A DNA stretch of 48,264 nucleotides from a virus. Taxonomy: Duplodnaviria; Heunggongvirae; Uroviricota; Caudoviricetes. Made by a program: the position numbers. Shown here piece after piece: positions 39,001 to 42,000 of this stretch. Position 1 is the stretch's first letter, and each line of letters opens with the position of its first letter. The DNA is taken from IMG/VR virus record IMGVR_UViG_2718217789_000011. One strand, written 5' to 3'.

Positions 39001-42000
39001 TGTGATTGCTCCGACCCTGCGGTCATCACCTGCTGCACAGCGCCCGAATCGGCTTCCGGTGTCGTGCCTGCTGGCTGACCAGGATTGACGGTCTGAACAT
39101 CCCCTGCCTGGTTCGTGGTGTTTTTTTTGCCATGAACCATAGTGTTTTTGTCCTGTTCCTGTTCTTTCTCCTGCTCCTGTTCCTGTTCTTGGCTTCGAAG
39201 CCCCTTAAAAGCCCCTTCGAAGCCCCTTACCGAATTTCGGCTATTATTCCGCCTCACATCCAGATGGAAATCCGTTTTATATCTGTCGTAAAACACTGAC
39301 AGAAAAGCGTTTTCAGGTAATGATGCATACTCATTCCTGACACCTGCACAACGGTTATCGCCAGGCTTCAACGTTTCCCCAACCTGCCAGGCTGCCATTT
39401 CATGGACCCAGACCATCTCTGCATCATGGTCATAGCTACAAAAACCAGCTTCAACAGCCCTTTTAAGCCCCTTTGAAGCCCCTTCCAGACCAAGCCCGGT
39501 TTCATGAGCAAGGTATAAAACTGGCAGGTAATACAAACCCAGCATATTTGCGTGAGGGGATGTCATCAGGTAAAAAGCAACAACTTGCGCTTCTGCACCC
39601 GCCTTTCTAAGTTCTCTCCCCGTTTCTCCCAGCCAGAATCGCGGAGAAACTTTTGCGTAATCACGCATGGCTACCTCATCTGGTGCCGAACCTTCCTCCG
39701 GATATAATCTGTGGTTCCCAATCGACAGAACCAGAGGAGGTTCGACATGTATTTTTTGAAAAGCCTTTATCAGGCTCATGTATTAAATGTTGCAGCAACA
39801 AACCGCTGGTGTAACAGCCCCGAAATGCTCCCGGATTACAGAGCCTGGCTGCGCGCCGAAACATACCTTCGTCTCGACATATTGATTAGCGAACTTCAAA
39901 AAGAGACTGCATCCATTCATAACCTTCAGGGTATCGACGCTGTTCGCATTCTGGTATCGCGCCATAGTGCTCTCTCAATAATTGAAGTGCGTCATCTCTC
40001 TTTTTCTGAACTGATTTTCTTGCTTCAACCAGCTCTGGAATCAGCGAATATCCCGCCGGAAGTGATCCAATACCCACCTCATGTTGACGAGCAGTTACAA
40101 GATGTGCCATACAACCAGCGTGCTGGATTGACTCCCTGCTCAGAGGCTGAATGGGATCACTCTCTGCTGAAGAAATACCAAGATTTGTATAATCCTCAAT
40201 AAGCCCGGCACACGCTTCTGCATCAGCCAGCTTTATTCTGGTTTCCTTGCGCTGTTCTCTGGCTGACAAACGCCAGAGCAGCGCATTAGCTTTATGTATC
40301 AACCACTCTGCCAGCTCCACATCAGATAAACCGCCACGCCAGATGTGCGGACTGTTTTCGTAAACGCTCAGTGTCAATTTTTTGTCATTACTCATATTTA
40401 TTACCCAATTAATGCACAGCCAGAGTGTTTCCTGCCGGGCCACCACGATTCATCTGATCGAACAGAACGATCGCTGATGCAACGAAATCATCAATATCTT
40501 TCACCAGCCGTTCCTTCGTCTCTACCAACTCCCGAAAATAAGCGGAACTGTGGCTGCGCATTCGGGCCACCAGCGGAGGCGGCATCGCTTTTTCGATCGC
40601 TGGTAACAACGCCTGAATTTTTTTAACCGCATCAGGAGTGTCTTTCTCCACCCAGCGGAAAATTTTCTGAGTATTGCGAGCCATGGCTTCCGGATGGCTG
40701 TCGTCATACAGTTCCGGGAACGTCATTCCCAGCTCGAAATACGCTTTGGTAATTTTCGCAGCCGGTACTTTTTCGCCGTCCGGATGCGCCCAGGCATTCA
40801 TCGCCATGCGGATGTGTTCATGCTTGATTTTCATGAATCAACTCCGGCGCATTTGATGTGTTAACCTTACATCCAACAGGTAAACCGTCGGTTGGGTTAG
40901 GATAAATATCTGGGCGGATTTCATGCGGGGTAACTTCCCACTTCATTAGTTGGCATAACGGAATTACCTGCTTTGGGGGAACGCCAAAGCTAAACCATTG
41001 CCAAACAGTCTGTTGAGCGACCCCCATATAACGACCTATTTCAGCCTGAGTGTATTTCTGCCTAATTTTTTCGCGAGTGCTATCTAGCATTTTGCCCTCC
41101 TCTAAAAACTATAAGCAAAGCCTACAATAAAAAACTGTATGCAATCAACAGTTTTTTATTGTGATGCTTTTAACAGTATTTACCTGTAAAATTGAATAAT
41201 GATGAGCGCCCTAGAAGTATCTATGTACAGAATCAGCAAGCTTCTTCAGGAAACTGGATGGAGCCAGGCTGAGCTTGCCCGTAGAATTGGTGTGACACAA
41301 CAAACTGTTCAACAATGGGTCAGCGGTAAGGCTACACCTAAAGCCTCAAGTTTGGATAAACTGGTTGAGGTTTCAGGGCATCCATTGCATTGGTTTTTAT
41401 TGCCTCCTGAAGAGTGTGAGCAAATTTTCACCCCTGACACGATGAAAATTGGTCCTCGCCAACGCGAACTGCTCCAAGCTTTTAGTGCGTTTCCTGAGGA
41501 AGACCAAGAAAAAATGCTTCAAGAAATCAAAGACAAGAAAAAATCAATGGAAGAAACCATTGCTAGGTGGCTGGCGGCACAAAAAAGCCGCCGGGCGTGA
41601 CCACAGTACAAGAAGAGGAGTTATGCCATGGGTACAGCCCTTTCTCCGATAGTTTCAGAATTCGAAACTACCGAACAAGAAAACAGTTACAACGAATGGT
41701 TGCGCACTAAAGTAACGTCAAGCCTTGCAGACACTCGCCCCGCAATTCCACATGACGAGGTAATGGCTGAAATGGAAAATCTTATTGCTCAAATTGCTGT
41801 AACTAACAAGAGCGAGTAATGTTACCCATTTTATGGCTACCGTCTGCTCGCGATGATTTGCGCCAGATCATAACTTACATCGCCAAGGAGAACCCACCGG
41901 CAGCACGTAGACTAAAAATACGCATTGAAACATCGGTATTACCTCTATCTGAGCATCCGTACTTATATCCACCAAGCGAACGGGTTTCTGGATTGAGAGA

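Follow-up and report, generated by a model that had tools for sequence, protein, structure and literature searches.

Two convergent, overlapping open reading frames between ydaT and the replication initiator of an Escherichia coli O157:H7 prophage are probably both genes

The early region of a lambdoid prophage of Escherichia coli O157:H7 was examined in a stretch of 48,264 nucleotides (IMG/VR record IMGVR_UViG_2718217789_000011; the whole stretch analysed is referred to here as the window), in which two long open reading frames (ORFs) on opposite strands share DNA between ydaT and the gene for the replication initiator. The disputed DNA is 100% identical to O157:H7 chromosomes, including that of EDL933, and the prophage was assigned to CP-933M/Sp4; the protein record of the minus-strand ORF also names the cryptic prophage CP-933M. 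An earlier note on this sequence had pointed out the two ORFs and a strong AGGAGG ribosome-binding site for the plus-strand ORF, all of which were found, and had considered only one of the ORFs likely to be real. The comparative evidence indicates instead that both are probably protein-coding genes that would make up a two-gene cassette of the early regions of temperate phages, with the 3' parts of the convergent genes lying in the same DNA on opposite strands. The pair, referred to as the plus ORF and the minus ORF, has the following features.

39747..40202 (stop codon included), + strand: plus ORF, ECs1072 family, WP_000273724.1, 151 amino acids (aa); supported by NCBIfam NF033230 and the NCBI Prokaryotic Genome Annotation Pipeline (PGAP)
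39886..40395, - strand: minus ORF, phrog_8304, AAG55469.1 / Q8X4I3, 169 aa; supported by the PHROG match, with no PGAP call
39886..40202, both strands: tail-to-tail antisense overlap of 317 nt, codon position 1 opposite codon position 1
39735..39740, + strand: Shine-Dalgarno (SD) sequence AGGAGG of the plus ORF, 6 nt ahead of its ATG
39703..39708, + strand: TATAAT hexamer, possible -10 element of the plus ORF, without a good -35
39687..39744: leader inverted repeat (arms 39687-39699 and 39732-39744), recognised by fold and conservation
40403..40406, - strand: weak SD sequence (GGGT) of the minus ORF

The plus ORF extends from an ATG at 39747 to a TAA at 40200-40202, and its longest form, from a GTG at 39711, has 163 aa; the length of 152 aa previously given for it counted the stop codon. 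The minus ORF extends from an ATG at 40395 to a TAA at 39888-39886, and would have 186 aa if started from a GTG at 40446. The relative frame of the overlap is 'sas11', in which position 3 of the plus codons faces position 2 of the minus codons and position 2 of the plus codons faces position 3 of the minus codons. The minus ORF is co-oriented with ydaS, ydaT, the replication initiator gene and a dnaC-like gene, and the plus ORF points the other way.

The choice between these ORFs affects the operon model, as had been stated earlier, and public annotations indeed disagree. The plus ORF scored 105.7 bits against the NCBIfam model NF033230 ('ECs1072 family phage-associated protein'; cut-off 70 bits), with residues 4-145 aligned to positions 3-141 of the 142 in the profile, and is the only one of the two annotated by PGAP in all 455 complete E. 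coli genomes carrying the module, which is found in ~8% of complete E. coli genomes. The minus ORF corresponds to the EDL933 record (AAG55469.1 / Q8X4I3, 'unknown protein encoded by cryptic prophage CP-933M') and matched phrog_8304 over residues 1-169 of 169 (E 4e-120, 398.8 bits). However, the very high number of bits per position suggests that phrog_8304 was built from near-identical sequences, so that taken alone this match is no evidence of coding. PHROGs holds no family for the plus ORF, and NCBIfam returned no match for the minus ORF. Neither ORF matched Pfam, PADLOC, Rfam or Protein Data Bank (PDB) sequences. A search for known anti-phage defence and toxin-antitoxin families gave no PADLOC or Pfam match and no toxin or antitoxin fold match for either protein, and no Rfam match was obtained at E≤1 across 39000-41400. 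Two names associated with the minus ORF, 'Rha family transcriptional regulator' and 'YdaT', were rejected, as they come from mis-clustered N-terminal YdaT fragments (some named 'Rha family transcriptional regulator, partial') in the 90%-identity cluster of this protein; annotation by name could be misled by this artefact of clustering.

Homology searches with both translations, as suggested in the earlier note, identified divergent homologues of each ORF. Protein searches reached 49% identity for the plus ORF and 50% for the minus ORF, and a profile search extended the minus family to ~31%. Taken together, the homologues of each ORF extend to 25-35% identity. Both families are small, as clustering at 50% left 23 representatives of the plus family among 1.84 billion proteins, and the minus family comprises 19 clusters. 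In at least 14 divergent lineages (25-55% aa identity) from E. coli, Salmonella and IMG/VR prophages, both ORFs are open and convergent, with an overlap of 257-323 nt in the same relative frame; Serratia was represented by a minus protein hit only. The genetic contexts differ, some lineages being located in lambdoid immunity/replication regions and others in Salmonella int-cox-ash-recE elements, and in the contexts examined the minus ORF runs with the early operon and the plus ORF against it. When 11 loci were picked solely by minus protein motifs encoded outside the overlap, a full-length plus ORF was found in 11/11. The position of the minus stop codon varies among lineages, giving proteins of 148-197 aa. 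Intermediate variants were taken from Logan/NCBI contigs, as complete E. coli genomes hold only the version with at least 99% identity, and the copies found in a metagenome scan were likewise all ≥99% identical. In the INPHARED phage collection, neither ORF had a homologue at the DNA or protein level, the single match covering the leader only, and two scans of species representatives in GTDB gave nothing that could be confirmed.

A conserved start codon and ribosome-binding site were found for both ORFs. In 16 aligned leaders, the plus ORF is preceded by a nearly invariant GGAGG(T/C)TC, and the start codon is ATG in 15/16 and GTG in the Salmonella lineage L085 (L numbers denote individual lineages or loci). 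The ATG and SD site of the minus ORF are conserved in all lineages, the SD region being cAGGAGGatat (cAGGAGGatatATG) in the Salmonella and IMG/VR versions and GGGT or GAGGT in the E. coli versions. In the window this ATG lies 13 nt past the ydaT stop codon, and translational coupling of the minus ORF to ydaT is possible. The leader of the plus ORF contains an inverted repeat (GCCGAACCTCC ... GGAGGTTCGAC, also written GCCGAACCT(T)CC...45-65 nt...GGAGGTTCGAC) in the ~60 nt upstream of the ATG. Folded as RNA, the leader gave -27.6 kcal/mol (z -2.7), with the SD of the plus ORF paired to an upstream anti-SD, and the predicted structure would sequester this SD. Both arms are almost invariant in all lineages, including the leaders of L003, L081, L085, L153 and L154, and the leader matches no Rfam family.

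Analysis of conservation and substitutions across related prophages, also proposed earlier, revealed coding-type purifying selection for both ORFs. Outside the overlap, the two segments carry classical coding signatures, with p-distances at codon positions 1, 2 and 3 (p1/p2/p3) over all pairs of 0.39/0.30/0.57 for plus codons 1-46 and, in the minus frame, 0.38/0.30/0.53 for minus codons 1-64. Among close E. coli variants, the nonsynonymous substitution rate relative to the synonymous one (dN/dS, Nei-Gojobori) was 0.24 in the plus-only part (dS 0.37) and 0.10 in the minus-only part (dS 0.30). Within the overlap, the p-distances are flat at ~0.39-0.43 for the three codon positions. The 311 ungapped sites of the overlap were partitioned in OLGenie style in close relatives, which gave rates of 0.082 for changes nonsynonymous in both frames (dNN), 0.159 for changes nonsynonymous in the plus frame only (dNS) and 0.228 for changes nonsynonymous in the minus frame only (dSN). 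Omega in the overlap was therefore 0.36 for the plus ORF (dNN/dSN; bootstrap P=0.0005) and 0.51 for the minus ORF (dNN/dNS; P=0.02), and a second independent group of relatives gave 0.41 (P<0.0005) and 0.68 (P=0.05), respectively. Compared with the truly synonymous sites of ydaT from these genomes (0.44-0.60), overlap sites that are synonymous in one frame only evolve 2-3 times more slowly. Purifying selection was thus detected in each frame within the overlap, the signal in the minus frame being weaker and confined to two blocks, given here with the control ORF discussed below.

39993..40067, both strands: dual-constraint block B2, plus codons 83-107 and minus codons ~110-134
40107..40199, both strands: dual-constraint block B4, plus codons 121-151 and minus codons ~66-96
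40345-40626, + strand: control ORF opposite ydaT, 93 aa, in the same relative frame

The two blocks stand out in the divergence at the wobble position of the plus codons. This position is saturated outside the overlap (0.60-0.64, plus codons 1-46) and in plus codons 48-82 (0.65-0.67) and 108-120 (0.69-0.71), whereas it falls to 0.41-0.42 in B2 and to 0.34-0.37 in B4. The low-wobble blocks match conserved segments of the minus protein (residues ~66-96 and ~110-134), and in deep pairs among the 14 lineages the wobble divergence of the blocks was below that of the non-overlapped part in 88/88. In pairs involving L085, which has no minus gene, wobble divergence in both blocks rose to 0.67-0.72 with little change at position 2. 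Within the overlap, minus codons 61-85 keep p3 above p2, a coding signature of the minus frame, and residues Y69, L72, G73, S75, E78, I82, E88 and P120 of the minus protein are invariant or nearly so. A cross-frame test, in which the sense gene was randomised at its synonymous sites and the aa identity of the other frame compared, gave identities of 0.21-0.52 against 0.12-0.28 expected, the excess being significant in 20/21 deep pairs for the minus frame given the plus frame and in 21/21 pairs for the reverse. Minus-frame identity in the overlap was about twice that predicted from conservation of the plus protein (0.21-0.52 versus 0.14-0.28).

The control ORF is a true shadow ORF. Stops appear in it in relatives that are 18-22% diverged (L089 and L092), and its dNN/dNS of 0.92-0.97 was not significant, compared with 0.21-0.24 for ydaT. 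Interruption in relatives, absence of selection and lack of a conserved start codon or SD sequence were thus seen for the control and for neither of the two ORFs studied. Shuffling of synonymous codons in the window showed the pattern to be beyond chance. With the plus protein fixed, the minus frame remained open across the overlap in 0.2-1.1% of trials, with 3.2-4.4 stops expected, and with the minus protein fixed the plus frame stayed open in 2-14%. When the shuffles were repeated per lineage, 1-4 antisense stops were expected and the probability of an open frame was 0.002-0.4, but an open frame was seen in one lineage after another.

The AlphaFold2 model of the plus protein has a predicted local distance difference test score (pLDDT) of 89.5, including the half encoded by the overlap, and a predicted template modelling score (pTM) of 0.86, and this protein is the more strongly constrained partner and is confidently predicted to be globular and helical. 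The minus protein carries a strongly conserved N-terminal motif, SPHIW(R/A)GGL..(E/A)LA.WL. Fold searches returned generic helical matches only, and those for the minus protein were uninformative.

The view that only one ORF is likely to be real is contradicted by the divergent homologues of both, by purifying selection outside and inside the overlap, and by joint retention in at least 14 lineages. We therefore consider it likely, on comparative sequence evidence, that both are real protein genes, in which case the minus gene continues the rightward early operon and the plus gene is embedded antisense in it. Several observations weigh against this interpretation. The sole mention of expression, an indirect one, is a 2-fold change of ECs1072 in one microarray study from 2007, and the one supplement of an enterohaemorrhagic E. 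coli (EHEC) translatome (ribosome profiling, Ribo-seq) paper that was searched for expression values yielded nothing. A sigma-70 scan found no promoter for the plus gene in the region, and the TATAAT at 39703 is not conserved outside E. coli-type leaders. The lineages are phylogenetically non-independent, and the overlap partition was a simplified re-implementation of the idea in PMC7531306. Close relatives show statistically modest selection on the minus frame in the overlap (P=0.02 and 0.05), with several single pairs non-significant. In the last ~35 codons of the minus ORF the pattern is inverted, with minus position 2 freer than minus position 3; as these codons follow the plus-frame pattern and the minus stop codon varies, this tail is a passenger of the plus gene. 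The model of the minus protein is mediocre (pLDDT 66.7, pTM 0.44), with long helices and a disordered C-terminus. In addition, frameshifts disrupt the minus ORF in L042 and in the two independent assemblies L083/L084, this ORF is absent from Salmonella L085/L086, where another cassette follows the plus gene, and a nonsense codon interrupts the plus ORF of one assembly, L092; neither gene is therefore indispensable. Finally, the expression switch proposed below is an analogy.

The current PGAP/RefSeq model implies that only the plus ORF is a gene and that the minus ORF is a shadow kept open passively because its antisense frame is poor in stops. Consistent with this are the PGAP annotation of the plus ORF alone in 455 complete genomes, the lack of an NCBIfam or Pfam match for the minus ORF, the poor model of its protein, the tail that shows no minus-frame constraint and the frameshifts in two lineages. 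The earlier note had also contrasted the common codons of the plus ORF with a minus ORF rich in AGA/AGG and AUA. The numbers stand, AGA/AGG accounting for 6/13 Arg codons and AUA for 3/10 Ile codons in the minus ORF against 1/8 and 2/10 in the plus ORF, but the contrast has no discriminating value, since the neighbouring, undisputed replication gene carries more AGA/AGG than either ORF (11/27 Arg codons). Given the comparative data, a plus ORF standing alone is strongly disfavoured and we regard it as very unlikely, as minus codons 1-64, which lie outside the plus gene, have a dN/dS of 0.10 and p1/p2/p3 of 0.38/0.30/0.53, the minus ATG and SD are conserved everywhere, and the minus ORF is open in at least 14 deeply diverged lineages despite 1-4 stops being expected in each. 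Moreover, the plus wobble position is constrained only where the minus gene exists, and a real shadow ORF in that frame, the one facing ydaT, is broken by stops at 18-22% divergence. The converse model, that of the EDL933 record and PHROGs, in which only the minus ORF is a gene continuing the ydaS-ydaT-replication operon and the plus ORF is the shadow, agrees with the orientation of the minus ORF, with its start 13 nt after ydaT, with the absence of a plus family from PHROGs and with the failure to find a plus promoter. It is also strongly disfavoured, and hardly credible, since the plus ORF scores above the cut-off of a diverse NCBIfam model, starts at ATG or GTG behind an invariant GGAGG, shows a dN/dS of 0.24 outside the overlap and dNN/dSN of 0.36 and 0.41 inside it (P≤0.0005), encodes a protein modelled with a pLDDT of 89.5, and remains intact where the minus gene has been lost (L085/86) or frameshifted (L083/84).

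A further explanation accepts both genes but treats their overlap as incidental, the functional minus protein being approximately its N-terminal third and the rest a tolerated read-through tail, with the constraint on the plus wobble position coming from mRNA structure or stability or from a regulator site. The variable minus stop (148-197 aa), the plus-frame pattern of the last ~35 minus codons, the low pLDDT at the minus C-terminus and the limited significance of dNN/dNS (P=0.02-0.05) all fit this explanation, and the L085 control cannot separate loss of the minus protein from loss of minus-strand transcription. However, minus codons 61-85 keep p3 above p2 inside the overlap, the conserved minus residues from Y69 to P120 lie within it, and minus-frame identity is about twice the prediction from plus conservation. 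A sense/antisense duplex is also unable to constrain the sequence, because the same DNA gives both RNAs. An incidental overlap is thus unlikely, and two protein genes with a shared, dually constrained 3' region remain the preferred interpretation.

The ~70-nt leader was also found ahead of unrelated plus-strand genes in the same slot of other prophages, including a second pair with the same architecture, in which a different 151-aa plus ORF is followed by a convergent minus ORF of 137-138 aa, with an overlap of 236-239 nt in the same relative frame and the same leader. Two copies of this pair, which are 51% and 42% identical, were located as follows.

L154 2549-3182: second pair in E. coli STEC306 (NZ_CP091016)
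L085 3554-4187: second pair in Salmonella Minnesota

Wobble divergence in the second pair was 0.58 outside the overlap versus 0.36 inside. It was found in 22 complete E. coli genomes. PGAP annotates its minus partner and omits its plus partner. Homology between the two pair types was not significant for the plus proteins (hhalign E 0.025-0.6) and is only suggestive for the minus proteins (E 4e-4 to 7e-4, probability 27-34%). A third cassette was observed in the same slot, with the same leader, at L153 2549-3170 (E. coli 3-72, NZ_CP155528); it has a 131-aa plus gene with a hydrophobic N-terminus and a convergent, non-overlapping and unannotated 73-aa minus ORF whose product looks membrane-embedded.

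In phage lambda, a 77-nt non-coding RNA with its own terminator, oop, lies antisense between cII and O. The plus gene resembles oop in map position and orientation, being located between ydaT and the replication initiator gene and directed against the PR-type operon. YdaT has been assigned a role equivalent to that of CII (PMC9986795, PMC8630535). Unlike oop, the antisense unit here is a conserved 151-aa protein gene, and the features of an oop-type small RNA were not found, as no terminator-like site was present downstream of the plus gene and there was no Rfam match. The resemblance is thus one of position, and possibly of mode of working, and does not imply family membership. By analogy, the minus gene would be transcribed with the early lytic PR-type operon, together with ydaS, ydaT and the replication genes, and the plus gene would be transcribed against this operon from the position held by oop in lambda. 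Convergent transcription and an RNA duplex of 260-320 bp could then make expression of the two mutually exclusive, with the plus gene expressed, as a lysogeny-phase protein, while the early operon is weak or repressed, and the minus gene expressed after induction. We propose this switch with low confidence.

The type I toxin-antitoxin loci txpA/ratA and bsrG/SR4 of Bacillus subtilis also have a convergent 3' overlap, formed by a non-coding RNA and the gene of a toxin, a small membrane peptide. The prophage pair shares with them convergent units with overlapping 3' ends and RNAs able to pair, but here both partners encode predicted soluble helical proteins of 150-170 aa.

Long antisense overlaps of bacterial and phage protein genes are widely seen as annotation artefacts. 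Annotation pipelines keep one strand of such overlaps and real genes are therefore lost, as RefSeq/PGAP omits the minus gene in 455 complete genomes and the plus partner of the second pair type, and PHROGs omits the plus gene. Antisense overlapping genes have been described in E. coli O157:H7, namely nog1, laoB, ano, asa, pop and oloz0137/4542/5029 (e.g. PMC9927249, PMC7103648, PMC5960689). They are found in the same organism and likewise involve opposite-strand proteins at one locus with one partner excluded by pipelines, but they mostly lie within an older 'mother' gene, or share much of their length with one, and are backed mainly by Ribo-seq and phenotypes; the three antisense genes of PMC9927249 are stated to be non-phage-derived. 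In the prophage pair, each partner has a private N-terminal part, the arrangement is tail to tail, and the support is comparative, from co-retention and selection over 25-55% aa identity, whereas the published E. coli examples mostly rest on expression data for young ORFs. The olg1/olg2 genes of Pseudomonas aeruginosa (PMC8850804; OLGenie, PMC7531306) are similar in their long antisense overlap and dN/dS-type purifying selection in the alternative frame, but are evolutionarily novel ORFs embedded in annotated genes, whereas the prophage pair is a mobile cassette in several enterobacterial genera with partners that can be lost.

Literature searches found no description of this gene pair. It differs from the published cases in combining stand-alone genes arranged tail to tail, a mobile prophage cassette, deep comparative support and a second pair type with the same architecture. 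The two-strand arrangement appears from the comparisons to be rare and evolutionarily conserved, with an overlap of at least 257 nt co-inherited in one fixed frame across 25-55% aa identity, accompanied by a natural knock-out and a same-frame negative control. If both ORFs are translated, the pair would rank among the bacterial antisense gene pairs with the strongest evolutionary support, and would provide a tractable model, in E. coli O157:H7, for codon sharing and convergent transcription in prophage decision circuits. A broader proposal is that a family of exchangeable 'two-strand' cassettes occupies the slot between cII and O in lambdoid prophages and its early-operon equivalent in Salmonella int-cox-ash-recE elements. 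The cassettes would consist of a portable SD-sequestering leader, a gene of ~151 aa against the operon and one of 137-197 aa with it, with 236-323 nt dual-coded in the same frame and at least two sequence-distinct pair families, the overlap itself acting as a convergent-transcription/RNA-duplex toggle that yields one of the proteins in the lysogen and the second once the prophage is induced. This proposal is tentative and rather doubtful.

The genes surrounding the pair in the window are listed below.

37824-38570, - strand: dnaC-like gene
38577..39668, - strand: replication initiator, 363 aa from the ATG at 39668, downstream neighbour of the pair (phrog_1701, PGAP start)
40409..40834, - strand: ydaT (CII-equivalent), upstream neighbour in the early operon (Pfam PF06254, phrog_163, PMC9986795)
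40818-41090, - strand: ydaS/cro-like gene
41199-41600, + strand: PaaR-like repressor gene, 133 aa, HTH_3
41628-41819: small ORF of 63 aa between the repressor and toxin genes
41819-42106: RelE/ParE-family toxin gene

The start of the replication initiator gene was placed at 39668, as the phrog_1701 alignment begins at residue 38 of the longest ORF, a GAGG lies 5-8 nt upstream of this ATG, and PGAP agrees. The start at 39779, which would give the longest ORF (400 aa) and enter the start of the plus gene, is disfavoured on the same grounds. An ORF of 289 aa on the + strand (38136-39005) is antisense to the dnaC-like and replication initiator genes, with position 2 facing position 2, and indicates that very long antisense ORFs do arise elsewhere in the window. 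A three-component toxin-antitoxin system, paaR2-paaA2-parE2, has been reported for CP-933M (PMC8630535), and the repressor gene, 63-aa ORF and toxin gene at 41199-42106 resemble the CP-933M homologue of this system. The YdaT operator is 5'-TTGATTN6AATCAA-3' (PMC9986795). A site resembling it with 2 mismatches at 39882-39899, on the stop codon of the minus gene, was dismissed as being at chance level (35 hits with ≤3 mismatches versus 26 expected). A perfect operator (TTGATTTTCATGAATCAA) was found at 40824-40841, across the end of ydaS and the start of ydaT, which is the same spot as that described for CP-933P (PMC9986795).

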